Positions 3,378 through 18,324 of a stretch of DNA of 24,000 nucleotides are shown piece by piece (within the stretch, counting starts at the first letter, position 1; each line of letters opens with the position of its first letter). The DNA comes from an uncultured Actinomycetes bacterium. Its GTDB lineage: Bacteria; Actinomycetota; Thermoleophilia; Gaiellales; Gaiellaceae. The stretch is taken from positions 1,176,522 through 1,200,521 of the forward strand of contig CAVRPZ010000002.1 of NCBI GenBank assembly GCA_963723345.1, given 5' to 3'. Below the pieces are notes generated by a model. The model saw nothing but the letters and a program-made list of their open reading frames with translations, was not told the DNA's origin and searched no databases. A program made the translations under genes and the position numbers.

Positions 3378-4358
3378 TTACCGAGGGGTGGCCGAAGGCG
3401 CGGGGCCAGCAGTCGGCGTCTCTCTCGGCGCAACTTCGCGAGCCTTTTCCTGCAGGCTCTCGGACAACTCCTCACCCTCTTCGCGACCGCGTTCCTTCGC
3501 CGTCTCGATGGCTGTCGCGCCGGCCTCCTGCACGACATCTTTCCCGCGCTCGAAAGCTTCCCGTCCCGCGTCCGCCGCCGTCGCTTTCACATCGTCGGCC
3601 ATTGGCCCGATCCGCTCGTCTTCCATGCGAGTGGAGGGCGCGAGCAGGCCCGCGATGAAACCGACCGCTGCACCGCCGATCGCCAGTCCGACCGGGTTCC
3701 TTTCTGCCAGCCGCTTCATGCGATTCATGCTCTGACTGACCTCCGCACCGTCGGGCGTGATCTCGCCTGCCTTCGACGTGACCCCGCTCACCGTCGAGAC
3801 GACGGCGTCCTTCTTCTCCCCGATCCAGTCCTTTGTCCTGGTCGGCACGTCAGCCTTGTACGCGAGCGCGTCGGCGGTCTCGCTCAGCTGGTCGCGGGTC
3901 TGCTCGATCTCGCTCTTCAGCTCGGTCTGATGTGTGAGCCATGCCACATCCTCCTTCACCGATTCGATTGTCTTTTCGGGCACGGGCGTGCCCACGTCCT
4001 GGATCTTGTTGCGGCCGTACAGCGCCAGAGGCACCGCCACGAGCGCCCATAGCCCGGCAACACACAGCGCCGCCGCCCAATTGGGCATCACGCCATCGAG
4101 CGCGAGGATGAGGAACCCCGTGAACGTACCCAGAGCGAGAAGGCCGGCGACTCCCGCCGCGGTGAGTACTGCGACGCCCGCCCCGGCTTTCTTTCCCTTC
4201 TCGGCCAACTCGGCCTTCGCGAGCTCGAGGTTCTCGTTCAGCTCGACCTTCACGAGTTCGATCTCCTGGTGAACCAGGGTGGTCGCCTGATGCGTGAGAT
4301 CCTTGACCAGCTGGACGGTCGAGCGCTGACGGACGACGTCGCCGTCGATGATCGTCAT
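3378..4358 (-). CDS. Membrane protein: Holin-X (actinobacterial phage-holin family, superfamily III) N-terminal domain fused to a DUF3618-like domain
   Basis: 326 aa. The N-terminus (STVQLVKDLTHQATTLVHQEIELVKVEL...) is followed by two TM helices typical of Holin-X. The middle part (EIEQTRDQLSETADALAYKADV) and a third TM (NPVGLAIGGAAVGFIAGLLAP) are typical of DUF3618. The ATG at 4358 abuts the upstream stop at 4359-4361. Confidence 0.8.
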   Translation of the reverse strand: MTIIDGDVVRQRSTVQLVKDLTHQATTLVHQEIELVKVELNENLELAKAELAEKGKKAGAGVAVLTAAGVAGLLALGTFTGFLILALDGVMPNWAAALCVAGLWALVAVPLALYGRNKIQDVGTPVPEKTIESVKEDVAWLTHQTELKSEIEQTRDQLSETADALAYKADVPTRTKDWIGEKKDAVVSTVSGVTSKAGEITPDGAEVSQSMNRMKRLAERNPVGLAIGGAAVGFIAGLLAPSTRMEDERIGPMADDVKATAADAGREAFERGKDVVQEAGATAIETAKERGREEGEELSESLQEKAREVAPRETPTAGPAPSATPR

Positions 4359-4871
4359 CTACGCACCCCCGCTCGTCAGGCTCCGCATCGAAGGCGAGTA
4401 GCCGCTGCCGTTGCTGTGCGCACCCTCGTAGCGGCGGTTGCCCGAGGCCTTCACGAATCGTGAGGCCAGGAGTCCCGCGAGGGCGCCGACGCCCGCCGTG
4501 AGCCAGGGACGCCTTCGGGCGAATCCCTCGATGTCGCCGAGGATCCGGTCGGCCTCCGCGGACTGGAGGTAACCGCCTACATCGTCGGCGCGCCGAGCGA
4601 CCTCCTCGACGACCCTTGCCGGCACATCCTTGCCTTCACTGCGCAGCTGGTTGGCCCCGGACTGGAGGGTCTTTCCGATCGACTGCAGCTGTTCGCCCGC
4701 CTGGGTCGAGCGCTGGTCGAGCTGCTCACGGATCTGGAAGTTGGCCTCTCCGCCCAGCTCATGGGCCTTGGCCGTGATCTGCTCCTGGGCCGCGGAGACG
4801 AGCTCCTCGCCCTTGTCCTTCACTTCTGCTGCAGCCCCACTCGGGTGACTGCCACTCGTTTCAGTCGCCAT
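4359..4871 (-). CDS. Tail-anchored coiled-coil stress protein (ElaB/YqjD/DUF883-like architecture)
   Basis: Start chosen at ATG 4871 (MATETSG...), which has an AAGGAG RBS about 9 nt upstream. The 4964 start in the track adds an Arg-rich junk extension. Long polar helical region, then RRPWLTAGVGALAGLLASRF as a single TM. Confidence 0.7.
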   Translation of the reverse strand: MATETSGSHPSGAAAEVKDKGEELVSAAQEQITAKAHELGGEANFQIREQLDQRSTQAGEQLQSIGKTLQSGANQLRSEGKDVPARVVEEVARRADDVGGYLQSAEADRILGDIEGFARRRPWLTAGVGALAGLLASRFVKASGNRRYEGAHSNGSGYSPSMRSLTSGGA

Positions 4872-5018
4872 GCGCCCTGCTCCTTTCGTCTGAGGTCTTG
4901 GACACCGCTGTCGCGCCCACCGTTGCTTCGTCGCGCGGCGATTCGCCGCCGGCTTGTCGTGCAATGGGGCATGTGCTCGGGGCGAGGGCCCCGAGCACAG
5001 ACCGTGACTGGCGTGCGT

Positions 5019-5303
5019 CTAGCGGTTGTTGAGCGGGTCTTCGCCGCCGGCGTACTTGGTGCCCGACTTGGCGAGGCCGCGGCTGATCATGTAGCCGATC
5101 CCGACCGCGGCGACGAGCGTCCAGGCGCGGACATCGTCGAGTGAGTCGGAGATGGCCGAGGCAGCCAGGATGGCCACGATGAGGCCGGCCATCGCCCAGA
5201 ACTCGGTGGTCTTCAGCGAGTGCTTGGTCTCGTCGGTGGTGCGATCGCCGACGTAGGCCGGTGTCTTCGTGCGCGCCCGCTCAGTGGTTTCCATTGTTGC
5301 CAT
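5019..5303 (-). CDS. Small membrane protein (2 TM), hypothetical
   Basis: 94 aa with two hydrophobic helices (FWAMAGLIVAILAASAI, WTLVAAVGIGYMISRGL). Strong GAGGAGG RBS 7 nt upstream of ATG 5303. Confidence 0.75.
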   Translation of the reverse strand: MATMETTERARTKTPAYVGDRTTDETKHSLKTTEFWAMAGLIVAILAASAISDSLDDVRAWTLVAAVGIGYMISRGLAKSGTKYAGGEDPLNNR

Positions 5304-5808
5304 TGCTGTTCCTCCTCTTGAGGGTCGTATGAGGCGGAGGACTCAAACGAGTCCTCTCGCTACTTGCCGTGCATGGAGCGATGGTTCTTGGCTCGTCGTC
5401 CAGTCGCCTGATTGCGAGAAGACGATCGAAGCCCGTCGCCTCGAACGCAGTCATCGGCGTCTGCGGCCCGACGAGGACGAGCAGCTCGCCCCCGTGCGCC
5501 TGCTGGCGTCGGCTCGCGCCGAGGAGCAGGGCGAGCGTGGTCGCGTCGATGAAAGTGACCATGCGAAGGTCGACGGTCAGGTGGCGCACTTCTGCCAACG
5601 CGTCTTCGATCGCCGGGGCGCGGAAGAGGTCGAGCTCGCCAGCGAGGACGAGGACCGCTGATTCGCTCCCATACCGCTCGAGGGCCAGCGAAAAGTCGGC
5701 TTGCACGGTTCGGGCTTGCGGCAATTCGCTCTCGAGGGCCTCAGCTGGCCTCCAGCCCGCAGCACCTGCTTCGGGCGGAGCGGTGTTGATTTGTTCATGT
5801 CTCATCAC
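5281..5808 (-). CDS. STAS-domain protein (anti-sigma-factor antagonist, SpoIIAA/RsbV family)
   Basis: STAS core AVLVLAGELDLFRAPAIEDAL...LTVDLRMVTFIDATTLALLLG...GGELLVLVGPQTPMTAFEATGFDRLL. GTG 5808 or ATG 5805 start. The 3' end overlaps the next gene by 23 nt. Confidence 0.8.
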   Translation of the reverse strand: MMRHEQINTAPPEAGAAGWRPAEALESELPQARTVQADFSLALERYGSESAVLVLAGELDLFRAPAIEDALAEVRHLTVDLRMVTFIDATTLALLLGASRRQQAHGGELLVLVGPQTPMTAFEATGFDRLLAIRRLDDEPRTIAPCTASSERTRLSPPPHTTLKRRNSNGNNGNH

Positions 5809-5927
5809 GCTGCCACCGTAGCTCAGTTCTGATGAACTATGGCCGATCTGATGAGGTATTTGATGAGGTATTTGGCGAATTATGATGAGAAATATCCGCT
5901 GGCAGCTGGAAGTACTGATGAAGTAAG
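5809..5927. promoter_or_regulatory. AT-rich divergent intergenic region carrying five TGATGA(R) motifs, including an exact 12-bp tandem duplication
   Basis: TGATGA at 5829, 5848, 5860, 5882 and 5915. TGATGAGGTATT is repeated exactly at 5848-5859 and 5860-5871. A TATGAT -10-like hexamer lies at 5880-5885. The region is visibly far more AT-rich than its flanks. Confidence 0.45.
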
Positions 5928-6251
5928 ATGGTCGTCATGCAGCACGGCGAGCTCGCGATCTACAGCATTGGCGCCGTTGAGCGCATGCTCGACGTCCCGG
6001 CCGCGACGATCCGAAACTGGGAAGAGCGCTATGGGCTCGTGAAGCCCGAGCGCAGCAACGGCGGCCATCGGCTCTACACACGCGGACAGGTCGAGCAGCT
6101 CCGCTTCGTCAAGGAGGGACTCGATCGAGGGCTGCAGCCCGCCGAGGCCCATCGCCTGCTCGGCGAGCAGCTCGCGCGCCGCAGCGGCGTTCGCGTCAAC
6201 GGATGCGAGCGAGCAGGCGCCTCGCCTTCTGATCCTGCTCGCCGAGCGTGA
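5928..6251 (+). CDS. MerR-family HTH regulator (LitR/CarH-class DNA-binding domain); probably the N-terminal part of a frameshifted MerR-receiver fusion
   Basis: IYSIGAVERMLDVPAATIRNWEERYGLVKPERSNGGHRLYTRGQVEQLRFV is a MerR wHTH of the same subclass as the LitR at 13086-13967. After about residue 85 the frame yields a featureless tail, while the +1 frame continues into a receiver domain. Confidence 0.8.
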   Translation: MVVMQHGELAIYSIGAVERMLDVPAATIRNWEERYGLVKPERSNGGHRLYTRGQVEQLRFVKEGLDRGLQPAEAHRLLGEQLARRSGVRVNGCERAGASPSDPARRA

Positions 6252-6303
6252 TCCGTACGCGGCCGAGTTCGCCGAGTTCTTCCTCCAGACCGAGGGCTAC
6301 GAG

Positions 6304-6600
6304 GTGGCTCTCGCCCTCGATGCCGATGACGCAGCGCTCAAGCTCGAGCAACGCCTACCCCAGCTTGCGGTGATCGAGCTGCTCATCTCCGGCGGTACGG
6401 GCGCCGATCTGTGCCAGCGTCTGAAGGAAGCCGGAGTGCCTGCGTGCCTGGTGATCTCCACGCTCGACGCGCGCGACCAGGCGCTCGCAGCGGGCGCCGA
6501 CGCCTTTCTGCGGAAGCCACTCGATCCGCTGCAGTTCGTCTCGACCGTCAAGGACTTGCTCGGGAAGAGCGCTTTCCTGCAAGGCGCGACATCGCTATGA
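6304..6600 (+). CDS. Response-regulator receiver-like domain (atypical: Glu at the phospho-acceptor position)
   Basis: Receiver signatures LVISTLD (Thr) and FLRKPLDP (Lys). The first canonical start is GTG 6304, but receiver homology (RLLILLAERDPYAAEFAEFFLQTEGYEV) continues upstream in the same frame to about 6223. There is no ATG/GTG/TTG between 6043 and 6304. The stop TGA (6598-6600) overlaps the next ATG (6597-6599). Confidence 0.7.
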   Translation: MALALDADDAALKLEQRLPQLAVIELLISGGTGADLCQRLKEAGVPACLVISTLDARDQALAAGADAFLRKPLDPLQFVSTVKDLLGKSAFLQGATSL

Positions 6601-7988
6601 GCGAGCGTCTCCTGAGCGGCCATTCCCGCCTCGACGGCGTGCTCGGGGGCGGCCTCCCGGTGGACGCAATCAACATGCTCATCGGGCTTCCGGGAACCGG
6701 CAAGACGATCCTCGCTCAGCAATACCTGTTCGCGAACGCGACGATCGAGCGGCCCGGCTTGTACCTCGCCACGGTGTCGGAACCATTCGACAAGATCCTC
6801 CGCTACGGCCAGAGCCTCCGCTTCTTCGACCCTGGAGCGGTCGGCAACTCGGTCTTCTACGAGGACCTCGGCCCGGCTCTCAACGAGCGCGGCCTCGCCG
6901 GCGTCCTCGAGCAGGTGACCGCGCTGATCAAGGAGCGCCGCCCGGGAATCATCGTGATCGACAGCTTCAAGGCGCTCTCTGCCTACGCGGAGGCTGCCGA
7001 GTTTCGCCGCTTCCTCCACGATTTCGCCGGCCACCTGTCCGCCTTCCCGGCCTCGTCGTTTTGGATCGGCGAGTACGGCGAAGAGGAGATCGCCGTGGCA
7101 CCCGAATTCGCGGTCGCCGACGCCATCATCAGCCTCTCCACGACGCGAGCGTCCGAGCGCGAGACGCGCTCCCTCCGCGTCCTCAAGCTACGGGGAAGCG
7201 AATTCGCTCCCGGCCAGCACGCCTACCGCCTCTCGGCCAACGGGATCGACGTCTTCCCGCGGCTGGCCGACCAGATCGACATGACCAGCTACCCGCTCGA
7301 CGGAGCCAGGCACTCATCCGGGATCGCCGCCCTCGACGACATGCTCGCCGACGGTTACTGGCCCGGCGCCTCCACGCTCTGCGCTGGCCCCTCGGGCTGC
7401 GGCAAGACCCTGATGGGCCTGCACTTCATCTTCAACGGCGTCCGTCAGGGCGAACCCGGTGTGCTGGCGACGCTCCAGGAACACCCGACCCAGCTCGCGC
7501 GGATCGTCGAGGGGTTCGGGTGGTCGGTTGACGAGGAGGGCGTCGAGCTGATGTACCGCTCGCCTGTCGACATGTACATCGACGAGTGGGTCTATGACCT
7601 CCTCGAGACGGTGGAGCGCACCGGAGCACGCCGTGTCCTCATCGATAGCCTCACCGATCTCAAGCTCGCCTCGCCGGACGAGATCCGGTTCCGCGAATAC
7701 ATGTACTCGCTCGTCCAGCGCTTCTCCCGCCAGGGAGTCAGCGTGTTCATGACCTCGGAGCTACCAGACCTCTTCCACGTGAGGCGACTCTCCGAGTTCG
7801 GCGTCTCACACCTCTCCGACAACGTCGTGCTCCTCCAATACACCCGCGACCAAGCAACCGTTCGGCGCGCCCTCACCGTCTTGAAGACGCGCGCAAGCCG
7901 ACACGAACCGGAAACCCGCGAGTTCAGAATCACTCCCGAAGGGATCGTGCTCGGTGACCCGTTCATCCCTGCACAAAGGTTCGACTAG
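6597..7988 (+). CDS. KaiC-like double-domain RecA-superfamily ATPase
   Basis: 463 aa with two tandem KaiC/RecA-like domains. Walker A motifs are GLPGTGKT (6684-6707) and GPSGCGKT (7386-7409); Walker B-like motifs are GIIVIDSF and RRVLIDSL. The domain ends LKLRGSEF...Y.LS..GI.VFPR and LKTRASRHE...REF.ITPEGI are typical of KaiC-family proteins. The 6411 start in the track is an off-target extension through the receiver gene. Confidence 0.9.
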   Translation: MSERLLSGHSRLDGVLGGGLPVDAINMLIGLPGTGKTILAQQYLFANATIERPGLYLATVSEPFDKILRYGQSLRFFDPGAVGNSVFYEDLGPALNERGLAGVLEQVTALIKERRPGIIVIDSFKALSAYAEAAEFRRFLHDFAGHLSAFPASSFWIGEYGEEEIAVAPEFAVADAIISLSTTRASERETRSLRVLKLRGSEFAPGQHAYRLSANGIDVFPRLADQIDMTSYPLDGARHSSGIAALDDMLADGYWPGASTLCAGPSGCGKTLMGLHFIFNGVRQGEPGVLATLQEHPTQLARIVEGFGWSVDEEGVELMYRSPVDMYIDEWVYDLLETVERTGARRVLIDSLTDLKLASPDEIRFREYMYSLVQRFSRQGVSVFMTSELPDLFHVRRLSEFGVSHLSDNVVLLQYTRDQATVRRALTVLKTRASRHEPETREFRITPEGIVLGDPFIPAQRFD

Positions 7989-8025
7989 CACGAACCGCGC
8001 GACAGGTAGGCGGACGAGCGCGCAC

Positions 8026-9144
8026 GTGCACGTCACCGACCTGCTCCTGCTGGAGGAACTCCACGCCCAGTTGCCGGTCGGCTTGCTCGTCAACGACGCC
8101 GACACGCTCGAGATCCTCCACGCCAGCCCCCCACTTCCGGGTTTCGCCGGTCACGACCTGCCGCTCGATCAGCTGATCCAATCGCACAAGGACGAACGCC
8201 AGCCGCTCGGCCAAGCAGATGAACTGGCGGCACTCGTCGCAGACGTAGCCGCGACCGGAAGGCCGCGTCACCTACGCGAGTTCCGTCACGACTCCCCAGG
8301 GCAGGAGCCGAACTGGTGGAGCGCAACCCTCCGTCGCATCGACACCGACCGCTGGGGCCCAGTCGTAGTCACGCTCGCGGTCGACACGACCGACCAGGTT
8401 CGCGCCCGGCATCTCCTGGAGGAGCGCGAACGGCGGCACGTGGCCCTGCAGCAAGAGATCGCCGCCGTTCCCGGCCACAACCTCGTCTCCTCCCTCCAGC
8501 AGGTTGCCGATGCCCTCGTCCCCGCCCTACAGGCCGACGTAGCCACGATCCGACTGCTCGGCGCAGACGCCAAGCTCCACCTCGTCGCCGCTAGCGGCCT
8601 TCGCCCCGCCGAGACTCGACGCCTCGCCCTGGACCCGATCACCCTACGCCGGCTCGAGACGATGATCGAAAGCGGGCCGCCGACAGCCCTCGGATCGCTC
8701 GGCCTCCACTGGGTCGAGGTGCGGTGGCTCGAGGCCGGCGGCAAACGGATCGGGATTCTGACGATCGGTGCGCGCAGCAAGCGGCGTCCGCCCGAGGACG
8801 ACCTCACGCTGCTCAACGCCGCATCAGTGCAGCTCGGCCACGCCCTGGAGAACATCGAGCGGAGCCCGCAGTTCCTTCGAAGCCGTTCTCTCGAGGTGGC
8901 CCGCGTGAACACGGACGTAGGCGAGGCCGCGCAAGCCCGCAGCGCCGACCTCCGCCCACGCGAGCTCGCGATTCTCCGCCTCTACGGCGAAGGACTCCGA
9001 ACAGATCAAGTCGCCGAACTACTCGTTCTCTCCCCGCACACAGTCCGGACACACGTGAGGAACGCCCGCCGCCGCCTTGGCGTCAGCTCCCGAGCCGAGG
9101 CACTCGACCTTCTCAAAGCTGCCGAGGCCGATCCCTCTGTGTGA
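8026..9144 (+). CDS. PAS-GAF-LuxR (HTH) transcriptional regulator
   Basis: N-terminal PAS-like fold (LPVGLLVNDADTLEILHAS...WWSATLRRI...VVVTLAVDTTDQV). Central GAF (LQQVADALVPALQADVATIRLL...LHLVAASG...RIGILTIGAR...LLNAASVQLGHALEN). C-terminal LuxR HTH (LRPRELAILRLYGEGLRTDQVAELLVLSPHTVRTHVRNARRRLGV). Start is uncertain: GTG 8026 is preferred because ATG 7954 would overlap kaiC-like by 35 nt and add a low-complexity extension. Confidence 0.8.
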   Translation: MHVTDLLLLEELHAQLPVGLLVNDADTLEILHASPPLPGFAGHDLPLDQLIQSHKDERQPLGQADELAALVADVAATGRPRHLREFRHDSPGQEPNWWSATLRRIDTDRWGPVVVTLAVDTTDQVRARHLLEERERRHVALQQEIAAVPGHNLVSSLQQVADALVPALQADVATIRLLGADAKLHLVAASGLRPAETRRLALDPITLRRLETMIESGPPTALGSLGLHWVEVRWLEAGGKRIGILTIGARSKRRPPEDDLTLLNAASVQLGHALENIERSPQFLRSRSLEVARVNTDVGEAAQARSADLRPRELAILRLYGEGLRTDQVAELLVLSPHTVRTHVRNARRRLGVSSRAEALDLLKAAEADPSV

Positions 9145-9199
9145 CCGACGGAAGAGATCGCTGCTCCCTGACTCATCGGTAGGTTCTCCTGCAGAAGTC

Positions 9200-9940
9200 A
9201 TGACCCGTCTGCGCTCCGGCAACCTCGCCCTCGCCGCACTCCATGGCGGCCAGGCCGTCTTGATCGTCGTCCTCGGGGCGACGCTTGCGATACCGATCAC
9301 GGCGCAGTGGGCGGACGGCCCGCCGGGTTCCGCGCTCGGCCCGACGGAGACGCTCTTCGACCTCCCGGTGCGCTGGTGCGTGGCCGCGTTCCTGTTGCTG
9401 GCGGCGTTGGATCACCTGCTCGTCGCCTCGCCGGGAGTCGTGTCCTGGTACGAGCGGAACCTCCGCCGCGGGATCAACTACGCGCGCTGGATCGAGTACT
9501 CCTTCAGCGCCTCGCTGATGGTCGTCCTGATCGCTGCGTTCGCGGGCGTCACCGATCTCCGTGCGCTCGTGGCCGTCGCGGGTGTCAACGCCGCGATGAT
9601 CCTCTTCGGGCTCCTCATGGAGCGCACGAACGTGGGCCGCGATCGGCCCGACTGGCTGCCGTTCTGGTTCGGATGCATTGCCGGCGCGGTCCCGTGGATC
9701 GTCATCGGGATCTCGCTCGTCGGGGCGGAGATCGACGGGAGTGTGCCCGGCTTCGTGTGGGCGATCTTCGTCTCCCTGTTCCTGTTCTTCAACTGCTTCG
9801 CGGTCAACATGTGGCTGCAGTACCGCCGGATCGGCGCCTGGCGCAGCTACGTGTTCGGCGAGTGGGGCTACCTGGTTCTCAGCCTCACCGCGAAGAGCGC
9901 GCTCGCCTGGCAGATCTACGCCGGCGCGCTCGCGAGCTGA
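9200..9940 (+). CDS. Heliorhodopsin (retinal-binding, inverted-topology 7TM photoreceptor)
   Basis: 246 aa. Blocks match my recollection of the founding heliorhodopsin 48C12: GPPG; NYARWIEYSFSASLMVVLIA (counterion Glu, codon 9494-9496); LPFWFGCIAGAVPWI; VPGFVWAIFVSLFLFFNCFAV; LVLSLTAKSALAWQIYAG (Schiff-base Lys, codon 9893-9895). Both conserved His residues are present (AALHGGQ, ALDHLLV). ATG 9200 is chosen; the 9077 start overlaps the LuxR gene. Confidence 0.9.
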   Translation: MTRLRSGNLALAALHGGQAVLIVVLGATLAIPITAQWADGPPGSALGPTETLFDLPVRWCVAAFLLLAALDHLLVASPGVVSWYERNLRRGINYARWIEYSFSASLMVVLIAAFAGVTDLRALVAVAGVNAAMILFGLLMERTNVGRDRPDWLPFWFGCIAGAVPWIVIGISLVGAEIDGSVPGFVWAIFVSLFLFFNCFAVNMWLQYRRIGAWRSYVFGEWGYLVLSLTAKSALAWQIYAGALAS

Positions 9941-10178
9941 GTCGGCGACGTCGAGCTGGCGCCCGCGCCCGGTCGACACGGCAGTTCACGTGGCACTCGG
10001 TCGCTCGGTCGGGTTCTGCTGAGCTGGGCCGAACTCACGGCCCGCAGCGGCGAGCGCCAAGAGCCTCCTCGAGTCGGCTGGTACTGTGGTGGCGATCGCA
10101 GGAATCAGAGCGAGTACCGGTCTTGGCTTAACACGCCTTCCGCTGCACGTTCATGAAGCAGTCGAAGGAGGTGGAGAT

Positions 10179-10391
10179 ATGCCAACCGGAACCGTGAAGT
10201 GGTTCAACGACGACAAGGGCTACGGCTTCGTGTCGCCGGACGACGGGAGCAAGGACGTCTTTGTTCACCACAGCGCGATCGGCGGCGAGGGGTTCAAGAG
10301 CCTCGCCGAGGGCGCGAAGGTGGAGTACGAGGTCGAGCAGGGCCCGAAGGGCCCGCAGGCGCGCAGCGTCAGCGTCGTCGCGTCGGTCTGA
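10179..10391 (+). CDS. cspA: Cold-shock protein (CspA family)
   Basis: [34 protein letters not shown] carries the RNP1/RNP2 motifs. GAAGGAGGTGGA RBS directly upstream of ATG 10179. Confidence 0.95.
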
Positions 10392-10397
10392 GCTCGT

Positions 10398-10426
10398 GGG
10401 GCGCACCGCCGTAGGCGGTGCGCCCC
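10398..10426 (+). terminator. Intrinsic-terminator-like hairpin after csp
   Basis: Perfect 13-bp stem ggggcgcaccgcc / ggcggtgcgcccc with a 3-nt loop, starting 7 nt after the csp stop codon. No T-tract. Confidence 0.7.
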
Positions 10427-10534
10427 CGTCTCACTTCGAGCCAGGGCTCGAGCGAGCTGCACGGAAGGTCGACGTGGACGGCGCCGAAGTGCCCGCCACG
10501 CGGATCGAGCGGAAGGAGCTGTGCCATCGCCGAC

Positions 10535-11650
10535 ATGGGGCCGCTGGGGAGCGCCTCCCCGCCGAAGCTCTCGTTCGACAACGGCGGCGACTTCATCAAG
10601 CAGACGCGCCGCGAGGTCGAGGAGTATCTCTCTGCCCGGCGTACCCGGGTGCGCGGACGCGTCGAGCTGTATGCCAAAGGGATCGTCGCGTTCGTCGTCC
10701 TGTCCGCGTCGTGGCTGACGCTCGTGCTCGGCCAACCCGGCCCGTGGCTCGGTCTCGTCAGCTTCGGCGGGCTGATCCTCGGCACCTCGCTCATCGCGTT
10801 CTGCGTGATGCACGACGCCAATCACGGCGCCTATTTCCGGACACGCCGGCTGAACCACCTGATGGGCTGGACGGCCGATGTGCTACTCGGGCTCTCGAGC
10901 TACGCCTGGCGCGTGAAGCACAACGTCGCCCATCACACCTATACGAACGTCGACGGCTACGACGCCGACATCACGCAGGTGCCGTTCGCGCGACTGACGC
11001 CCGTGCAGGCACCCCGTCCCTGGTACCGGCTGCAGCACTACTACATCTGGGCGCTGTACTGCGTGATGGCGCTCCGCTGGCAGACCGTCGGCGACGTCGC
11101 CGCATTGGCCCGGGGAAGCATCGGGACGAGCGCGTTGCGCATGCCGCGCCGCTGGGATCTCGCCGGCCTCGTCGGTGGGAAGGTGATCTTCGTCGGGTGG
11201 GCGATCGTCGTGCCGATGCTCGTCTATCCGTGGTGGGCAGTCCTCTGCGGCTATCTCGTCTACTCGATGGTCGTGAGCCTGATCATGGCCGTGACCTTCC
11301 AGCTCGCACACTGCGTCGAGGAAGCCGACTTCGCCTCGGCCGAGGAGCTCGCCAGCGAGCGGCGGCTCTGGGCGGTGCACGAGGTCGAGACGACGGTCGA
11401 CTTCTGCCCGCGCAACCCGGTGCTCGGCTGGGTGGTCGGCGGCCTCAACTACCAGATCGAGCACCACCTGTTTCCTCGGGTGCCGCACACGCACTACGCG
11501 CACATCGCCACGATCGTCCAGCGGAACGCCGAGCGACACGGTGTCCGCTACGTCACCCAGCGCTCGCTGCGCTCGGCCCTCCGGTCGCACTTCCGGCACC
11601 TGCGCACGATGGGCAGGAGGGGCGTCCCGGTCGCACTCGAGATGGGCTGA
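10535..11650 (+). CDS. Membrane fatty-acid desaturase (Delta6/front-end-desaturase-like, no cytochrome b5 domain)
   Basis: Three histidine boxes, HDANHG, HNVAHH and QIEHH, with TM segments in the canonical arrangement. ATG 10535 (MGPLGSASPPKLSF...) is chosen; the upstream part of the 10418 ORF runs through the csp terminator. Confidence 0.9.
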   Translation: MGPLGSASPPKLSFDNGGDFIKQTRREVEEYLSARRTRVRGRVELYAKGIVAFVVLSASWLTLVLGQPGPWLGLVSFGGLILGTSLIAFCVMHDANHGAYFRTRRLNHLMGWTADVLLGLSSYAWRVKHNVAHHTYTNVDGYDADITQVPFARLTPVQAPRPWYRLQHYYIWALYCVMALRWQTVGDVAALARGSIGTSALRMPRRWDLAGLVGGKVIFVGWAIVVPMLVYPWWAVLCGYLVYSMVVSLIMAVTFQLAHCVEEADFASAEELASERRLWAVHEVETTVDFCPRNPVLGWVVGGLNYQIEHHLFPRVPHTHYAHIATIVQRNAERHGVRYVTQRSLRSALRSHFRHLRTMGRRGVPVALEMG

Positions 11651-11695
11651 GCTCCCGTCGGGAACCGGGCCGCTCGGGCGGGGCGACGGGATCGG

Positions 11696-12583
11696 TCAGC
11701 CGGCCATGGAGCCACTCGAGAGAGCAGCACGTGCGGCGTCCTCGAAAGAGGTGAGCGGGAACGGGAGCAGAGCGCGCAGACGATCGTCGCGTACGACCGT
11801 CGGGTTGCGAAGACCTTCGATCAACGGGCGCGCGACACCCGCCCTCACCGGCGTGACGAGGTGGAGCCAATACGAGGAGAGCCTGGGGCTCAGCACGGGC
11901 ACCTCGACGATGAGACGCCGCCGGCCGCGGATGTGCGCGATCCGCTCGATCATCTCCTTGTAGCTGAGCACGTCCGGACCGCCGACGTCGAAGCTCTGAC
12001 CCCGGGCCTCGGGCATGCGCGCGACCCCGACGAGGTAACGGACGACGTCCGCCAGGGCGATGGGCTGGGTGGGCGTCGACACCCATCTCGGCGCGATCAT
12101 CGCCGGCAGCCGGTCGACGAGCGAGACGATCGTCTCGAAGGCGGCGCTGCCACGGCCGATCACGACGGCCGCGCGCAGCGTCGTAAGCGGAACGGCGCCG
12201 GACGAGAGCGCAACGGCCGTCTCGAGCCTGCTTCGCAGGTGCGGCGACAGGTCGGGCCGGTCGTCGCCGAGGCCTCCGAGGTACACGAGCTGGGAGACAC
12301 CTGCGTGTTCGGCTTCGCGGGCGACCGTCTCGGCTGCTCGGCGATCGACCACCGCGTAGTCCGGAGTCCCCAGGGAGTGGACGAGGTAGTACGCCACCTC
12401 GACGCCCTCGAGCGACCGGCGGACCGATGTGGAGTCAGTGACGTCGGCAGCGATCGGCCGTACACCCTCGACCGGCGAGGCATCGGGTCTCCGCGAGACG
12501 GCGACCACCTCCTCGGAACGGGCGAGGGCCGAGACGAGGGCCGTGCCGACCACGCCCGACGCTCCCAGCACCGCGACCGTCAC
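11696..12583 (-). CDS. NAD(P)H-binding protein, NmrA-like/atypical SDR family
   Basis: N-terminal Rossmann motif VAVLGASGVVG, 295 aa, typical NmrA/YbjT-like length. The GTG start at 12583 overlaps the upstream stop (GTGA). Confidence 0.85.
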   Translation of the reverse strand: MTVAVLGASGVVGTALVSALARSEEVVAVSRRPDASPVEGVRPIAADVTDSTSVRRSLEGVEVAYYLVHSLGTPDYAVVDRRAAETVAREAEHAGVSQLVYLGGLGDDRPDLSPHLRSRLETAVALSSGAVPLTTLRAAVVIGRGSAAFETIVSLVDRLPAMIAPRWVSTPTQPIALADVVRYLVGVARMPEARGQSFDVGGPDVLSYKEMIERIAHIRGRRRLIVEVPVLSPRLSSYWLHLVTPVRAGVARPLIEGLRNPTVVRDDRLRALLPFPLTSFEDAARAALSSGSMAG

Positions 12584-13089
12584 GAATGTGCCTCGGCGAT
12601 GAGTCGGGCGAAGTAGCGCCGGCTGATCGCCGCATGGAGTCGCTGCTGCGCGAATCCGAGCGTCGCTCCCAGCCGTGGTACGAACTCGGTCACCTCCGCG
12701 CGCAGCTCGACGTCCACGGCGCCGACCTGCGACAGGGCCAGCGAGCCGCCCTCTCGGCGCGCGAGCACGCCACCGCGGATCGGGTAGGTGCAGCTCACCC
12801 GCTCGTCCCCGACGGACGTCTCGGCAGGCCCGAAGCTGAGGAGGGCCGGGCCTCGTCCCAGCAGGCGCAGCTCGACTCCCTCCGTCTCCTGGCGGCAGCG
12901 GACCAGTCCCCGGCTGGCGCGCACTGCTTCGCGCCAGTATCGCTGCCCGAGGGCTCTTGCCCCCGAATCCGATCGCTCGACGACGGGCCGGGCGGAGCTC
13001 GCGCGCTGGACGGACGCGTAGGTCCCGTCCTCGCTCCTCGTCTGCACGGAGCTCCAGGCTTCGAGGCGGCGGGGCACGCGAGGGCTCAC
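12580..13089 (-). CDS. Hypothetical protein (169 aa), translationally coupled between the litR-like and NmrA-like genes
   Basis: The C-terminal ~120 aa has protein-like composition (YWREAVRASRGLVRCRQETEGVELRLLGRGPALLSFG...YPIRGGVLARREGGSLAL...FAQQRLHAAISRRYFARLIAE). GTG 13089 overlaps the litR stop (GTGA) and the stop overlaps the next GTG (GTGA). I do not recognise the family. Alternative GTG starts lie 12 and ~39 nt downstream. Confidence 0.6.
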   Translation of the reverse strand: MSPRVPRRLEAWSSVQTRSEDGTYASVQRASSARPVVERSDSGARALGQRYWREAVRASRGLVRCRQETEGVELRLLGRGPALLSFGPAETSVGDERVSCTYPIRGGVLARREGGSLALSQVGAVDVELRAEVTEFVPRLGATLGFAQQRLHAAISRRYFARLIAEAHS

Positions 13090-13967
13090 TCCGAGTGGAG
13101 AAGAGCGGTCACCCGCTCCGCCTCCCGGACCGGATCGTCGGTCAGCGCGAGCGCATCGAGGCCCGTCGTTCGGAGGCCTTCGGCTCCGGCGCCGCCCACT
13201 GCGAGCCGCCGCTGGCGCGCGATCTGTCGGAGGTCCGCGGCGAGCTCTCCAACCCGCTCCGGCGTCACGGAGCTCACGACGACGAGATCGACGTCGAGGG
13301 ACTCGGCGACGCCCCGGATGGTGTCGAGGGGGGTGTCCGCTCCGAGGTACTCGACCCGCCACCCGTGCGTGCGCAGTGCGAGACCGAAGGCGAGGAGGCC
13401 GAGCTCGTGCTGCTCTCCCGGGGCGCAGGCAAGGAGCGCGCGGGGACCCAGTCCCCGTCCCCAGCCCCGGGCGATTCCGAGCAGACGACCGCGAACGATG
13501 TTGGATGCGAAGTGCTCCTGCGCCACCGTGACCTCGCCACGCTCCCACCGGGCTCCGAGGTCGCGCAGGTACGGCATGACGATCTCGGAGAGGAACACGT
13601 CGAGTGTGACCTCTGCGAGGAGTCGGTCGAAGATCGCGTGTGCACGAGGCTCGTCGAACCCCTCGAGCGCGGCCGCGAGCTGGCCGACGGCGGCCATCGA
13701 CGACGCACGAGCGGTGGCGACCTGTGTGCTCTCGCCGGGGCCGCGTACCGCCGCAGCGGCAGCCTCGGCGGCGGCCAGCCCGTCTGCCAGGTGCTGCTGC
13801 ATGACGCGGACGCGCTCGAGATCGGCCAGCGAATAGAGGCGGAGGCCTCCGGGCGAGCGGATGGGCTCGAGCAAGCCGTAGCGGCGTTCCCAGGCGCGAA
13901 GCAGCTCGGGGCTGACTCCCGAGCGTCGGCTCAGCTCGCCGATCCGCAGCTGCGCTGGCTCTGACAT
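13086..13967 (-). CDS. litR: CarH/LitR-type MerR-family regulator with B12-binding domain (adenosylcobalamin-dependent light sensor)
   Basis: 293 aa. MerR wHTH (LRIGELSRRSGVSPELLRAWERRYGLLEPIRSPGGLRLY). Four-helix-bundle motif W-x9-EH (WERGEVTVAQEH, nt 13512-13547). Cobalamin-binding E-x-H-x-x-G (GEQHELG, His codon 13407-13409), then VVSSV and VGGAG. The 14339 start in the track is a junk extension through the intergenic region. Confidence 0.9.
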   Translation of the reverse strand: MSEPAQLRIGELSRRSGVSPELLRAWERRYGLLEPIRSPGGLRLYSLADLERVRVMQQHLADGLAAAEAAAAAVRGPGESTQVATARASSMAAVGQLAAALEGFDEPRAHAIFDRLLAEVTLDVFLSEIVMPYLRDLGARWERGEVTVAQEHFASNIVRGRLLGIARGWGRGLGPRALLACAPGEQHELGLLAFGLALRTHGWRVEYLGADTPLDTIRGVAESLDVDLVVVSSVTPERVGELAADLRQIARQRRLAVGGAGAEGLRTTGLDALALTDDPVREAERVTALLHSE

Positions 13968-13971
13968 GCCC

Positions 13972-14004
13972 CAAATATACAGAATCTGTACGAAACCTTG
14001 ACAA
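13972..14004 (+). promoter_or_regulatory. Candidate CarH/LitR operator: three tandem 11-bp direct repeats matching nAnnTnnACAn
   Basis: DR1 13972-13982 cAaaTatACAg; DR2 13983-13993 aAtcTgtACGa; DR3 13994-14004 aAccTtgACAa. DR3 covers the TTGACA -35 of the plus-strand promoter. The array also spans a minus-strand TATATT (13974-13979) 6 nt upstream of the litR ATG and contains the palindrome TACAGAATCTGTA (13978-13990). Confidence 0.5.
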
Positions 14005-14027
14005 GAACATCCGGCCGGTGGTACTGT
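13998..14027 (+). promoter_or_regulatory. Sigma-70-like promoter for the DUF378/fasciclin genes
   Basis: TTGACA (13998-14003), 18-nt spacer, TACTGT (14022-14027) preceded by TGG. It lies about 40 nt upstream of ATG 14067, which has a GGAGGTG RBS. Confidence 0.45.
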
Positions 14028-14066
14028 GCCGCATCTGAACAAATCATTGACAGGAGGTGAACAGCA

Positions 14067-14315
14067 ATGAAGAAGATTGACCTGCTCGCTGCAGTGCTCG
14101 TCCTGGTCGGCGCCCTCAACTGGGGTCTCGTGGCGATCGCCGAGTTCGATCTCGTCGCGACGGTCTTCGGCATGGAGTTCGGCGAGACCAACGCCGCGAG
14201 CCGGATCGTCTACGGGCTCGTCGGCCTGGCCGGCGTCTACGGCGTCGTCTCGCTGGCGACTCGACGTTCGGCCGCCGCGACCCTCCCCGCAAGGACCTCG
14301 TCGGCCTCGCACTGA
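14067..14315 (+). CDS. DUF378 domain-containing membrane protein
   Basis: MKKIDLLAAVLVLVGALNWGLVAIAEFDLVATVFG...SRIVYGLVGLAGVY is the characteristic DUF378 two-helix signature. Confidence 0.9.
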   Translation: MKKIDLLAAVLVLVGALNWGLVAIAEFDLVATVFGMEFGETNAASRIVYGLVGLAGVYGVVSLATRRSAAATLPARTSSASH

Positions 14316-14356
14316 CGGAACACACCACCGCACACACACGAGAAAGGACTATCGAC

Positions 14357-14854
14357 ATGAGAAATGCACGCTTCATCCTCGCGCTGCTCGCCGTCGCGGC
14401 GGTTGCCGCTGCTGCGATGGGAGCGTCTGCTTCCGCGAACACCAGCAAGGAAGGGGACGTCGTCTCGACGGCCGCCGGCGCGGGCAACTTCACGACGCTC
14501 ACCTCGCTCCTGAAGAAGGCGGGCCTCGTCGGCGCGCTCCAGGCCAAGGGGCCGTTCACCGTCCTCGCCCCGACCGACGCGGCCTTCGCGAAGGTGCCCA
14601 AGTCGACTCTCGCAGCGCTCGGCGCCGATCGGGCGAAGCTCAGGTCGGTGCTCAAGTACCACGTGATCGCCGGCAAGGTTCCTGCGGCGAAAGTGGTCAA
14701 GCTGCGCTCGGCAAAGACGCTCAACGGGCAGGCTGTCCGGATCCGCGTCGTCGAAGGCAAGGTCTTCGTCGGTGGCGCACGGGTGGTGAAGACGGACATC
14801 GCTGCATCGAACGGCGTCATTCATGCCATCAACCAGGTGCTGATCCCTCGCTAG
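14357..14854 (+). CDS. Secreted fasciclin (FAS1) domain protein
   Basis: Signal peptide (MRNARFILALLAVAAVAAAAMGASASA) followed by a FAS1 domain (FTTLTSLLKKAGL...GPFTVLAPTDAAF...LKYHVIAGKV...ASNGVIHAINQVLIP). Confidence 0.9.
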   Translation: MRNARFILALLAVAAVAAAAMGASASANTSKEGDVVSTAAGAGNFTTLTSLLKKAGLVGALQAKGPFTVLAPTDAAFAKVPKSTLAALGADRAKLRSVLKYHVIAGKVPAAKVVKLRSAKTLNGQAVRIRVVEGKVFVGGARVVKTDIAASNGVIHAINQVLIPR

Positions 14855-14865
14855 GCGAGGGGTGC

Positions 14866-14901
14866 GCCGACCGCCCGGCGCTGACGCGCCGGGCGGTCGG
14901 C
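14866..14901 (+). terminator. Intrinsic-terminator-like hairpin after the fasciclin gene
   Basis: Perfect 16-bp stem gccgaccgcccggcgc / gcgccgggcggtcggc with loop tgac, beginning 12 nt after the stop codon. Confidence 0.7.
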
Positions 14902-15137
14902 TCGCGACGGCTCTGCATGAACGAGTTCTTGCGGGATGTCTCCTGGACACCTCCACGTTCTTTCTCGCGCTCGCGTGGGACTCCGTCCAGGATGGAGCGG
15001 TGCGAGCTCCACGCGATCGACGACGGAGAGCGACTGCTCGTATTCGATCCGCTGGCCCTGCCGAGCGAGCTCGAGGGGTCTAGGGCCAGCGCGCTGCTCG
15101 CGGGGGCCAAGAGGGCCACGCGCTTACGTCGAGATGT

Positions 15138-16142: not shown

Positions 16143-16355
16143 GTGGCACGTTCTCTCACCGAAGCGCTCACCGAAACCGCACGAGCGCCGGTGGGGGTGC
16201 GTGATTGGGAGCGCGACCAGGAGGCATGGAACCTCCCGCGAGCCCGAGGAGGCTCGCTCGCTCGCGAGGCGGGCAAGGCAGGAGCCGAGCCAGGGGAGGG
16301 CGATCCTGGTGAGCGAGGGTCCGATCCCCCGGTAGCACCGGGCACGACGGAGTGA
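16143..16355 (+). CDS. Possible hypothetical protein (70 aa)
   Basis: GTG 16143 with GGGAGGAG (16125-16132) 10 nt upstream. The C-terminal half is low-complexity. The stop overlaps a downstream GTG (GTGA), which supports coupling. Confidence 0.35.
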   Translation: MARSLTEALTETARAPVGVRDWERDQEAWNLPRARGGSLAREAGKAGAEPGEGDPGERGSDPPVAPGTTE

Positions 16356-16456
16356 CCGGGATCGTCGTCTTCGCCGTGGGCTTCGCCGTGGGTCTCTGTG
16401 CCCTCGGAGCATGGACGTTCGCTCGTGTTCGGCGACGGGACTCGCGGCGCTGGTGA
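16352..16456 (+). CDS. Possible 34-aa single-TM micropeptide
   Basis: My own translation gives V/MTGIVVFAVGFAVGLCALGAWTFARVRRRDSRRW*. This is one clean TM helix followed by a positive cluster. GTG 16352 overlaps the upstream TGA (GTGA). Too short for the ORF track. Confidence 0.3.
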   Translation: MTGIVVFAVGFAVGLCALGAWTFARVRRRDSRRW

Positions 16457-16472
16457 CGGTGCGGGCGCCTCG

Positions 16473-16811
16473 ATGACGACCCAGGACGACCGTGCCGTGG
16501 ACGGCCAAATACGCCTCCTGCGCGGCCGGTTCGAGGCACAGTTCGACGACTTGGACGCCGCCAGGGCGGCGGCCCGCGACACGCGCGCGGTCGGGTTCGT
16601 CACCGACGTGCTGCAAGACATCCAGGGATGGCTCATCGTCGGCAGGCGCCAACTTCCCTTCCCGGCAGACGAGCGCGACCGCTACGCAAGTCGTCTGCAC
16701 GAGATCGCGAAACGACATGGCGGCGCCTACAAGCAGTTCGTTGCAGACCCGCCCGACACCCTGGCGACACCAGGGCAACGAGATCTGCGAGAGGAGACGG
16801 ATGAAGAGTAA
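16473..16811 (+). CDS. Hypothetical protein (112 aa)
   Basis: ATG 16473 (MTTQDDRAVDGQIRLLRGRFEAQFDDLDAARAAARDTRAVGFVTDVLQDIQGWLIVGRRQLPFPADERDRYASRLHEIAKRHGGAYKQF...). Protein-like composition; the 3' end overlaps the next ATG by 11 nt. No family recognised. Confidence 0.55.
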   Translation: MTTQDDRAVDGQIRLLRGRFEAQFDDLDAARAAARDTRAVGFVTDVLQDIQGWLIVGRRQLPFPADERDRYASRLHEIAKRHGGAYKQFVADPPDTLATPGQRDLREETDEE

Positions 16812-17040
16812 GCGACAGACGATGTCGAAGGTGGCGCGCGAGCGTGAGGTCAGAGTGCGTCGCGCGGCCAAGCTCGAGAAGAAGTATGCGGCGGCGGCCG
16901 AGCGCAAGGCCAAAGCGGAAGGTGCGACGTCTCCGACCAACGAGGAGGCCTATGGCGTTTCGTCCGTGACGAACACGGAGCCCGTCTCCGATTCAGCGAC
17001 TGGAGCGGCGGAGCCTCACGTGCCCCCGAGCCCGACGTAG
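16801..17040 (+). CDS. Hypothetical small basic protein (79 aa)
   Basis: ATG 16801 preceded by GAGAGGAGACGG. Lys/Arg-rich helical N-terminus (MKSKRQTMSKVAREREVRVRRAAKLEKKYAAAAERKAKAEG) and a disordered tail. The 3' end overlaps the convergent pobA by 25 nt. Confidence 0.45.
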   Translation: MKSKRQTMSKVAREREVRVRRAAKLEKKYAAAAERKAKAEGATSPTNEEAYGVSSVTNTEPVSDSATGAAEPHVPPSPT

Positions 17041-18194
17041 TTTTCCGCGAGCGACGCGGCAGCGGCATGTGACGTCGTCACGTAGCGCAGCTGCGACAGC
17101 TGGAGCTTCAGGTCGAATGCGTCCTCGTCCTCGGCGCGGTGGAGCATCCGGGTCATCCACCAGGAGAAGTGCTCCGCTCGCCAGACCCGGCGGAGGCACG
17201 CGGCCGAGTAGGCGTCGAGACCAGCCGTCTTCCCCGACCGGAACCACTCGACCAGCGCCTCCGCGAGCAGCCGCACGTCGTGCAGCGCGAGGTTGAGCCC
17301 CTTCGCGCCGGTGGGCGGAACGATGTGTGCGGCATCTCCTGCGAGGAACAGGCGCCCGTAGCGCATCGGCTCGCAGACGTAGCTGCGCATCCCGGTCACC
17401 CCCTTCTCGAGGATCGGCCCCTCTGCGAGCGCCCAGCCCTCGAGGCCGAGCCGCGCCTGCAGCTCCTCCCAGACGCGATCGTCGGGCCATTCGGCGAGGT
17501 TCTCGTCGGGTCGGCACTGGACGTAGAGACGGCTGAGCTCGGGAGAGCGGAGGCTGAGAAGCGCGAAGCCGCGCTCGTGGTGGGCGTAGACGAGCTCGTC
17601 GTTCGAAGGAGCGACAGCGGCGAGGATCCCGAGCCAGCCGAACGGGTACTCGCGCGAGAACTCGGACAGGACGCCGGCTGGAATGCTCGGTCGGCAGATC
17701 CCGTGGAACCCGTCGCAGCCGGCGATCGCGTCGCACTCGAGCTCCTCGTCGTGGCCTTCGTGCCGGTACCTGATCAGCGGGCGCTCGGTCTCGAGGTCGT
17801 GCACCGAGACGCCTGCCACGTCGAAGTGGAGCGGCAGACCCGTCTCGAGGCGAAGGCGGATGAGGTCCTTGACCACCTCCGTCTGGCCGTAGATCACGAT
17901 CGCCCGCCCGCCGGCGAGGTCGCTGAGCGGGATCCGGTGGCGCTCGCCCGCGAACTGCAGCTCGATGCCGCGGTGGACGAGGCCCTCGCGCTGGAGGCGC
18001 TCTCCCGCGCCCGCCTCGACGAGGAGGTCGACGATGCCCTGCTCGAGCACGCCCGCGCGGACGCGGGCCTCGACGTGGTCGCGGCTCCGGTCTTCGAGGA
18101 TCACCGTGTCGATGCCCTCGAGGTGCAAGAGCTGGCCGAGCGTGAGACCCGCCGGGCCGGCGCCGACGATGCCCACCTGCGTGCGCCGGCTCAC
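17016..18194 (-). CDS. pobA: 4-hydroxybenzoate 3-monooxygenase
   Basis: 392 aa from GTG 18194 (AAGAGGGTGG RBS). FAD motif QVGIVGAGPAGL, and the PobA-typical blocks LAGDAAHIVPPTGAKGLNLA and WWMTRMLH. Confidence 0.9.
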   Translation of the reverse strand: MSRRTQVGIVGAGPAGLTLGQLLHLEGIDTVILEDRSRDHVEARVRAGVLEQGIVDLLVEAGAGERLQREGLVHRGIELQFAGERHRIPLSDLAGGRAIVIYGQTEVVKDLIRLRLETGLPLHFDVAGVSVHDLETERPLIRYRHEGHDEELECDAIAGCDGFHGICRPSIPAGVLSEFSREYPFGWLGILAAVAPSNDELVYAHHERGFALLSLRSPELSRLYVQCRPDENLAEWPDDRVWEELQARLGLEGWALAEGPILEKGVTGMRSYVCEPMRYGRLFLAGDAAHIVPPTGAKGLNLALHDVRLLAEALVEWFRSGKTAGLDAYSAACLRRVWRAEHFSWWMTRMLHRAEDEDAFDLKLQLSQLRYVTTSHAAAASLAENYVGLGGT

Positions 18195-18324
18195 GGGCCA
18201 CCCTCTTTCGGCCCGTGAGCGGGGAGGGGTGCGGGGAACCGGGAGGTTCCCCACGCGCTCGAGAAGGGGGTACTTGGGGGAGGCATGGTCTCCTCCACGA
18301 CCGCGAGCCGGAGGCGAGCGATGC

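Follow-up and report, generated by a model that had tools for sequence, protein, structure and literature searches.

The MerR-type regulator CarH binds tandem direct repeats in its operators. Receiver domains with Glu at the acceptor position are known from Chlamydia ChxR and from plant PRR/TOC1, and pseudo-receivers occur in clock proteins as the N-domain of KaiA and the PsR domain of CikA. The role of KaiC homologues in organisms other than cyanobacteria is an open question, as is the way in which they signal where KaiA, KaiB, SasA and RpaA are absent. The locus described here lies in a window of 24,000 nucleotides (the whole stretch of DNA that was analysed) on contig CAVRPZ010000002.1 of an uncultured member of the Gaiellaceae, and its module combines known kinds of component, namely an atypical response regulator, a CarH-type MerR regulator and a KaiC-like signalling ATPase. 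An initial annotation of this DNA had proposed that a MerR DNA-binding domain and a CheY-like receiver, lying in different frames, were one gene split by a +1 shift. We show that positions 5928 (or 5937) to 6600 hold one regulator gene of about 220 amino acids, in which a short disordered linker joins a MerR domain at the N-terminus to an atypical receiver at the C-terminus. In the best overall explanation, which we consider probable, this single MerR-receiver gene is interrupted by an artefactual base, is paired with a KaiC-like gene and works with its product by the mechanism proposed below. No description of a MerR-receiver/KaiC-like module was found in the open-access literature.

One regulator gene across two reading frames

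The regulator is made up of the following parts:

5928-6194, plus strand, frame 0: 5' part of the regulator, with a CarH/LitR-type MerR winged-helix domain, the next helix and the start of the linker (...LGEQLARRSGVR)
6193-6195, plus strand: single frame-shifting extra base inside the inter-domain linker, located in DNA alignments with in-frame relatives
6196-6600, plus strand, +1 frame: 3' part of the regulator, with a complete (beta-alpha)5 receiver after the remaining linker residues (STDASEQAP), and with the stop codon TGA at 6598-6600

The frame-0 open reading frame (ORF), 5928-6251, encodes 107 amino acids, with Pfam MerR_1 at residues 12-78 (2.7e-18). Beyond ...LGEQLARR it runs into a non-homologous tail, SGVRVNGCERAGASPSDPARRA, that ends at the stop; the initial annotation had seen the protein-like character fade at this point, and the only homologue of the tail indeed lies in the equally shifted copy of one close relative, L004 (related loci are given here as L numbers, database proteins as P numbers). 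In the +1 frame, which reads ...AAAFASTDASEQAPRLLILLAERDPY... and ...AAAFASTDASEQAPRLLILLAERDPYAAEF..., no stop occurs between 6043 and the TGA at 6598-6600; from RLLILL onward the frame covers positions 1-110 of the 111 in the Pfam Response_reg profile (3.3e-12). Its first ATG, GTG or TTG is the GTG at 6304, on which the earlier reading and the ORF listing agree, and a start there would drop beta1/alpha1. Deletion of one base yields an ORF of 223 amino acids from ATG 5928 or of 220 from ATG 5937, the latter being the start that most orthologues use (MQHG...).

Alignment with in-frame relatives narrowed the break, previously placed somewhere within 6170-6225, to one extra base, which is either G6195 (GTT CGC [G] TCA) or G6193 (GTT C[G]CG TCA). 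The site reads GGCGTCCGTTCAACGG in L017, GGCGTCCGCTCAACGG in L008 and GGCGTTCGCGTCAACGG in the window. Measured between the conserved flanks CTGCTCGGCGAGCAGCTCG and CCTCGCCTTCTGATCC, the linker spans 45 nucleotides in the window versus 44 or 41 in every in-frame copy:

Window: GGCGTTCGCG followed by TCAACGG, 45 nucleotides
L017 (96% identical, in frame): GGCGTCCGT followed by TCAACGG, 44 nucleotides
L008: GGCGTCCGC followed by TCAACGG, 44 nucleotides
L002: GCTGTTCTG followed by TCAACGG, 44 nucleotides
L001: one codon shorter, 41 nucleotides

Without G6195 the window reads GGC GTT CGC TCA ACG, that is G-V-R-S-T, and the same stretch is NGVRSTDASEQ in database protein P0137 and SGVRSTDASEQ in L008. 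Orthologues differ in the length of this linker, for which disorder is expected, with a predicted local distance difference test (pLDDT) score below 50 at residues 86-97 of the AlphaFold2 (AF2) model.

With the conceptual fusion of both frames as query, more than 4,600 database relatives were retrieved, the best 120 of which are single ORFs of 208-245 amino acids at 80-97% identity; 119 of these 120 closest homologues carry both the MerR and the Response_reg Pfam annotation, and none carries a B12 domain. Among species-representative genomes (one genome per species), scanned with an alignment of seven close sequences, 373 loci encode a relative of the regulator, and 79 of the best 80 gave one uninterrupted full-length tblastn segment. 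Joint Genome Institute (JGI) metagenome contigs with the same flanks likewise have the linker in frame (8/8). The orthologue alignment that the initial annotation had suggested thus returns single MerR-receiver ORFs of about 220 amino acids and bears out its proposal of one split gene. The closest carriers are Gaiellaceae and other Thermoleophilia (76-96% identity), followed by Solirubrobacterales, Acidimicrobiia, other Actinomycetota, one Chloroflexia metagenome-assembled genome (MAG) and one Dormibacterota MAG; Solirubrobacter soli DSM 22325 (L049) is a cultured carrier. JGI labels the intact gene "DNA-binding transcriptional MerR regulator", and the architecture as such sits unnamed in databases. 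P0001 and P0008 (244 amino acids) and some other orthologues are annotated with a 22-residue N-terminal extension (MRYLRN.DEKY...), which is probably a gene-calling artefact, namely the translated operator-repeat region (window 5839-5927, where the frame differs from that of the gene).

The kinship of the MerR domain with LitR, also noticed earlier, stands: the domain is 42% identical over 62 residues (E=3e-12) to that of the window's own LitR, its best NCBIfam hit is CarH (1.2e-15, for the domain only and far below the full-length cut-off), and its best relatives in the PDB are Thermus LitR 3whp and CarH 5c8d (~3e-12). AF2 models the domain with pLDDT 74-94 over residues 11-80, and in Foldseek the regulator model matches full-length CarH best. 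The comparison supports an exchange of the B12 module and the receiver, both of alpha/beta flavodoxin-like fold, behind the same type of DNA-binding domain.

An atypical receiver

The AF2 model of the receiver has five strands and five helices, from beta1 (98-103) through alpha5 (199-210); its alignment was shallow and its pLDDT 52-72, and it is taken for topology only. Compared with solved receivers it reaches a Foldseek template-modelling score of ~0.75, and the best matches of the receiver are ordinary OmpR/PhoB-type receivers such as MtrA. The acceptor Glu, the E-R in place of an acidic pair and the retained Ser/Thr and Lys, all pointed out in the initial annotation, were recovered in alignment with MtrA and across the family. 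GAG 6376-6378 (Glu) stands opposite the phospho-acceptor Asp, E-R (6244-6249, the E-R-D codons being 6244-6252) opposite D-D, and K-P (6514-6519) opposite K-P; the invariant Ser is encoded at 6457-6459, AF2 puts it where beta4 ends, and HMMER aligns it to MtrA with an offset of one residue. Among 82 family members the key positions are occupied as follows:

After beta1: canonical D-D; in the family E in 80/82, R in 78/82, then D in 81/82
End of beta3, acceptor: canonical Asp; in the family Glu in 51/82, Asp in 31/82
End of beta4: canonical Ser/Thr; in the family Ser in 82/82
After beta5: canonical Lys; in the family Lys-Pro in 82/82

Whether the acceptor Glu is conserved had been raised as a check, and the answer is divided: Glu is indeed found in all Gaiellaceae and most Solirubrobacterales, but Asp takes its place mostly in Acidimicrobiia and others, so that Glu is not a family-wide trait. 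Judged from this alignment, the family is defined by its unusual acidic pocket, with the near-invariant E-R-D after beta1, and not by the Asp-to-Glu change. The receiver is probably not a classical phospho-acceptor, because an Arg occupies a Mg2+ ligand position and because Asp and Glu interchange at the acceptor, both of which disfavour classical phosphotransfer. More likely, it would serve as a protein-interaction or oligomerisation module that keeps the Ser and Lys switch residues. The gene lists around L002 and L003 show no histidine-kinase domain, the genomes as a whole not having been searched.

Pairing with a KaiC-like gene and a candidate operator

The features that flank the regulator are:

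6597-7988, plus strand: KaiC-like double RecA-domain ATPase of 463 amino acids (Pfam KaiC, PF06745, 8e-67, in two stretches)
5830-5925, plus strand: candidate operator with four copies of TGATGARGTA (repeat count and positional conservation)
5281-5808, minus strand: divergent gene for a STAS-domain protein of the anti-sigma-factor-antagonist type (Pfam STAS_2, 4.9e-10)
7954-9144, plus strand: PAS-GAF-LuxR(GerE) transcription regulator, whose gene overlaps the KaiC-like one at its 3' end (Pfam GerE, 4.6e-12)

The regulator and the KaiC-like gene form a conserved pair: in 81/81 loci the latter follows the regulator immediately on its 3' side, even where identity of the regulator is as low as 41%, and the stop of the one and the start of the other usually overlap or closely abut. 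In the window the overlap is ATGA, with the KaiC-like ATG at 6597, just as the earlier reading of a translational coupling had it. The KaiC-like protein matches KaiC 8zn5 in the PDB at 8.4e-60 and has a P-loop in each half (GLPGTGKT and GPSGCGKT, read in translation), and it scores below the cut-offs of the NCBIfam KaiC equivalogs NF006799 and TIGR02655 (212.7 bits versus 408, and 138.2 versus 546). Its phosphosite region reads ...gVSHLSDNVVLLQY versus ...hISTITDTIILLRY in KaiC, with Ser at the S431-equivalent and His at the T432-equivalent position. As to the catalytic EE pair, the first Glu is replaced by Gln in the C-terminal domain, and the N-terminal domain has Ser-Glu (read by eye in translation). 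Neither kaiA nor kaiB occurs among the neighbourhood genes of L002 and L003, the rest of the genome not having been searched.

Upstream of the regulator, copies of TGATGARGTA stand at 5830-5839 (with one mismatch), 5849-5858, 5861-5870 and 5916-5925, the middle two forming a tandem 12-bp direct repeat, TGATGAGGTATT twice over. The motif has six matches in the whole window versus 0.47 expected by chance, and four of the six fall within 96 bp. Repeats at about -98, -78, -66 and -13 from the start codon recur in most of the loci L016-L031, of the Gaiellaceae clade, with 3-5 copies each, and their positions hold while the intergenic DNA around them diverges; Solirubrobacterales have a related repeat copy near -95. 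We propose that these repeats are the candidate operator of the regulator. A scan of 5750-6650 for sigma-70-type promoters returned no promoter-like site.

A mechanism can be envisaged in which the nucleotide or phosphorylation state of the KaiC-like hexamer sets the state of the receiver, which would then decide the assembly of the CarH-type DNA-binding domains on the TGATGARGTA repeats in their own promoter region. A change in oligomerisation would in turn affect how both the operon and the divergent STAS gene are transcribed, in parallel to CarH, where the B12 domain controls oligomerisation on tandem repeats. That a stand-alone KaiC-like ATPase might act on transcription directly through the MerR-receiver protein, whose phosphorylation-independent pseudo-receiver would read the nucleotide or autophosphorylation state of the ATPase, is put forward tentatively, as a possibility against which the balance still leans. 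The analogy to the clock pseudo-receivers of cyanobacteria may be of use here as an idea only.

Cause of the extra base

The extra base is most probably a single-base insertion error of a Nanopore-only consensus, judging from how such insertions are distributed in this and related sequences. Frameshifts were located by comparison with orthologous DNA, the frame plot of G+C content at third codon positions being too strand-noisy on its own. Four coding indels are unique to the window, and every one of them is a +1 insertion; besides the one in the regulator, lone 1-nucleotide insertions at 1724, 2351 and 3922 break or fuse otherwise intact conserved genes. The gene for a GH65 glycoside hydrolase/phosphorylase (3107-1039, minus strand; 689 amino acids in orthologues) is read in three frames, the breaks being lone inserted bases at 2351 (CCGT[G]CCC) and 1724 (GTTC[G]ACG). 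Without both insertions it is free of stops, with a ratio of non-synonymous to synonymous change (pN/pS) of 0.14 against L013, two intact orthologues standing at 0.17 to each other. Because it has two frameshifts yet no other decay, this gene is not credible as a pseudogene, and its state is almost certainly an assembly error. The insertion at 3922 (CAGC[T]CGG) fuses the genes for Phage_holin_3_6 and DUF3618 proteins into one ORF of 326 amino acids (3378-4358, minus strand); L002-L004 keep them apart as genes that overlap in different frames, and the insertion falls inside the overlap.

The nearest relatives are Microflora Danica MAGs, and that project assembled Nanopore-only data with metaFlye and one round of Medaka, without short-read polishing (PMC12313526). 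The window's own contig, of 1.25 Mb, fits a long-read assembly. L004, which is 97% identical at the nucleotide level and the only close relative with the same split into 107 and 98 amino acids, has seven further unique 1-nucleotide insertions in 5.7 kb, breaking the genes for a 171-amino-acid protein, the STAS protein and the PAS-GAF-LuxR protein. The broken copies L028, L096 and L097 likewise lie on long-read contigs, the latter two being dense in indels (26-40 gap openings per 2.3 kb); in L028 (MFD05567.bin.2.25, a Microflora Danica MAG, match 233-897) the gene is broken elsewhere, at about MerR residue 42. In L040, L047 and L077 the KaiC-like matches are only partial, and similar breaks are possible there. 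High GC content keeps alternative frames open, and frameshifted long-read contigs then yield chimeric or oddly started database proteins; those affected include P0162, P0238, P0124 and P0134 (loci L096 and L097), P0162 reading the MerR domain in the +1 frame.

Selection appears to act on the receiver as on that of an intact protein, as far as few differences can tell: its core differs from that of L004 at four synonymous and no non-synonymous positions (p~0.005-0.01 under neutrality), the two non-synonymous differences between window and L004 being one in the linker and one at the last residue, and compared with the intact L001 the protein is identical bar one linker residue, with ten synonymous differences. 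Most likely the source organism, a soil actinobacterium of the Gaiellaceae/Thermoleophilia, makes an intact protein. Of the three causes considered in the initial annotation, the assembly indel stands as by far the likeliest, the other two being genuine mutation and recoding.

If the mutation were genuine, inherited by the window strain and L004 from a common ancestor or arisen twice, the gene would be a young pseudogene: the cell would lack a working receiver and make only a truncated MerR domain ending in 21 junk residues, and the KaiC-like gene would no longer be translationally coupled to it. The chief argument for this is the frameshift of the closest relative at the same spot, the linker of L004 having the same 45 nucleotides and its gene the same 107- and 98-residue split. 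The two are plausible sister lineages, differing from L002/L003 by the same small, seemingly real indels at 5001 and 5936, and orthologue linkers of 41 or 44 nucleotides indicate that indels are tolerated there. However, L004 reads GTTCCGC before TCA where the window reads GTTCGCG, so that the two differ at three adjacent bases (CCGC vs CGCG), for which two different insertions are the simplest account. Most parsimoniously, the two share one underlying 16-mer into which each took up a different base, whereas a single inherited insertion would also need three adjacent substitutions. Two independent insertions within 3 nucleotides, in turn, indicate a context-specific consensus error. By eye, no consistent common motif (for example for methylation) was seen among the insertion sites of L004 and the window. 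Moreover, the receiver core has taken up only synonymous differences since the two split, the same assemblies hold many lone +1 insertions in undecayed genes, and no short-read contig has the shift. We therefore consider a genuine mutation improbable, and a real, recurrent frameshift hotspot in the linker that switches the regulator off very improbable.

Programmed recoding would produce the full-length regulator by a +1 ribosomal slip in the linker and, by termination at 6249-6251, a product with the DNA-binding domain only. The +1 frame being open from 6043, a shift anywhere within about 6180-6213 would give a functional fusion, and the apparent purifying selection on the receiver would be explained too. 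It is nonetheless hardly credible, since the orthologues are in frame and hence offer no conserved shift site, the two copies that carry the shift have different letters at this point, and the site has no in-frame stop, homopolymer run or known slippery motif, the first frame-0 stop coming 54 nucleotides downstream. Folding of the RNA beyond the shift site is unexceptional against shuffled sequences (z = -1.15), and an Rfam scan of the window found no element. Gene callers annotated the window contig and L004 alike with two genes (107 and 98 amino acids), which would amount to a small MerR protein and an independent receiver made from a non-canonical start. The likelihood of this arrangement is practically nil: the 98-residue product from GTG 6304 would be without beta1/alpha1, no canonical start codon lies between 6043 and 6304, the tail of the 107-residue ORF has its one counterpart in L004, and the relatives examined have one ORF, bar a few frameshifted long-read copies. 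Comparison with orthologues rules it out.

Several points nevertheless weigh against our preferred explanation of one intact gene, an assembly error and KaiC-like control. That the closest relative is frameshifted within 3 nucleotides would be a coincidence of ~1% if errors were random; either the error is specific to this context, or the two share a real mutation. The sequencing technology behind the window was deduced from its relatives and from the 1.25-Mb contig, errors are unevenly spread, 9155-14940 and 16345-19310 having no coding frameshifts against L013, and the selection test draws on four to six substitutions only. The 31 of 82 members that keep the acceptor Asp may still be phosphorylated, and the mechanism (KaiC-like control, phosphorylation independence and repeat binding) was drawn from architecture and conservation only.

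Neighbourhood of the module

The STAS and PAS-GAF-LuxR genes join the regulator/KaiC-like pair only in the Gaiellaceae clade. The STAS gene, whose product also matches NCBIfam ant_ant_sig (3.1e-11, below the cut-off), is conserved upstream in the loci of that clade and shares the repeat-bearing intergenic region. The PAS-GAF-LuxR gene, with PAS_4 and GAF_3 matches at ~1e-4, just below the Pfam cut-offs, lies downstream in most of the loci L016-L031 but is missing there from all of L032-L095. The 5.7-kb block 3421-9154 (holin/DUF3618, small ORFs, STAS, MerR-receiver, KaiC-like and PAS-GAF-LuxR) is absent from the otherwise collinear L013, in which GH65 adjoins heliorhodopsin, and it stands in a different context in L002-L004; by its distribution among these loci it behaves like a movable cassette. 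The window also holds:

9077-9940, plus strand: heliorhodopsin (Pfam, 9.3e-96)
~10150-10360: cold-shock-domain gene, by collinearity with L013
10418-11650, plus strand: fatty-acid desaturase
13086-~13970, minus strand: B12-dependent LitR/CarH regulator

These neighbours related to light sensing (heliorhodopsin, cold-shock, desaturase and LitR) are linked in L013 too.

Implications

The frameshift itself is biologically unimportant. It does warn that MAGs from Nanopore-only data contain lone insertions that split genes, and that gene callers working on the open frames of high-GC DNA then produce chimeric or truncated proteins such as P0121, P0123 and P0162. More is to be gained from the intact gene, since a fused transcription-factor partner for the KaiC-like protein, together with a candidate operator, would offer a simple, testable output. 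If the proposal is true, this would be a two-protein route of KaiC output that needs no KaiA, KaiB, SasA or RpaA, and the route would be widespread in non-phototrophic Actinomycetota (Thermoleophilia and Acidimicrobiia). Beside heliorhodopsin and LitR, as here, it could conceivably serve day/night or stress timing.

Comparison with known systems

As to the extra base, the window resembles other Nanopore-only metagenomes with indel errors in having several lone +1 insertions per contig that split conserved genes, from which the short-read assemblies of close relatives are free, but it differs in that its insertions lie outside long homopolymers and in that one site is struck in two related assemblies. 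Unlike genes with programmed +1 frameshifting of the prfB type, the regulator gene has no conserved site, no stop at the site and no stimulatory structure.

With CarH and LitR (Thermus thermophilus CarH 5c8d/5c8e/5c8f and LitR 3whp) the regulator shares the MerR subclass W-E-x-R-Y-G...P-x-R...GG-x-R-L-Y and a C-terminal module of Rossmann/flavodoxin-like alpha/beta fold. It lacks their B12-binding module (PF02607 and PF02310) and helical bundle, however, and has a CheY-like receiver instead, with a KaiC-like ATPase rather than a chromophore as its partner. The tandem direct repeats upstream of the regulator, as a candidate operator, would resemble the layout of CarH operators, but their period here is 12 bp.

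Like the pseudo-receiver regulators, the protein has a complete receiver fold with a non-canonical Mg pocket, the acceptor Asp being replaced by Glu in the clade of the window. In contrast to atypical receiver regulators, its order is reversed, with the DNA-binding domain first and the receiver last, its output is of the MerR type and not OmpR, NarL or CCT, and its invariant Ser and Lys-Pro keep part of the switch machinery. Its genetic association with a KaiC homologue recalls the clock pseudo-receivers of KaiA and CikA, although its receiver has no specific sequence relationship to either.

Finally, the KaiC-like protein shares with the KaiC signalling hubs (KaiABC with SasA/RpaA, and stand-alone homologues) the double RecA-like domains with two P-loops, homology to KaiC hexamers and a place in an operon with a transcription factor. 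It departs from cyanobacterial KaiC in scoring below the equivalog cut-offs, in having His for T432 and in its altered EE pairs, and in its output a directly fused MerR-receiver protein would replace the histidine kinase and OmpR-type regulator of the cyanobacterial system.

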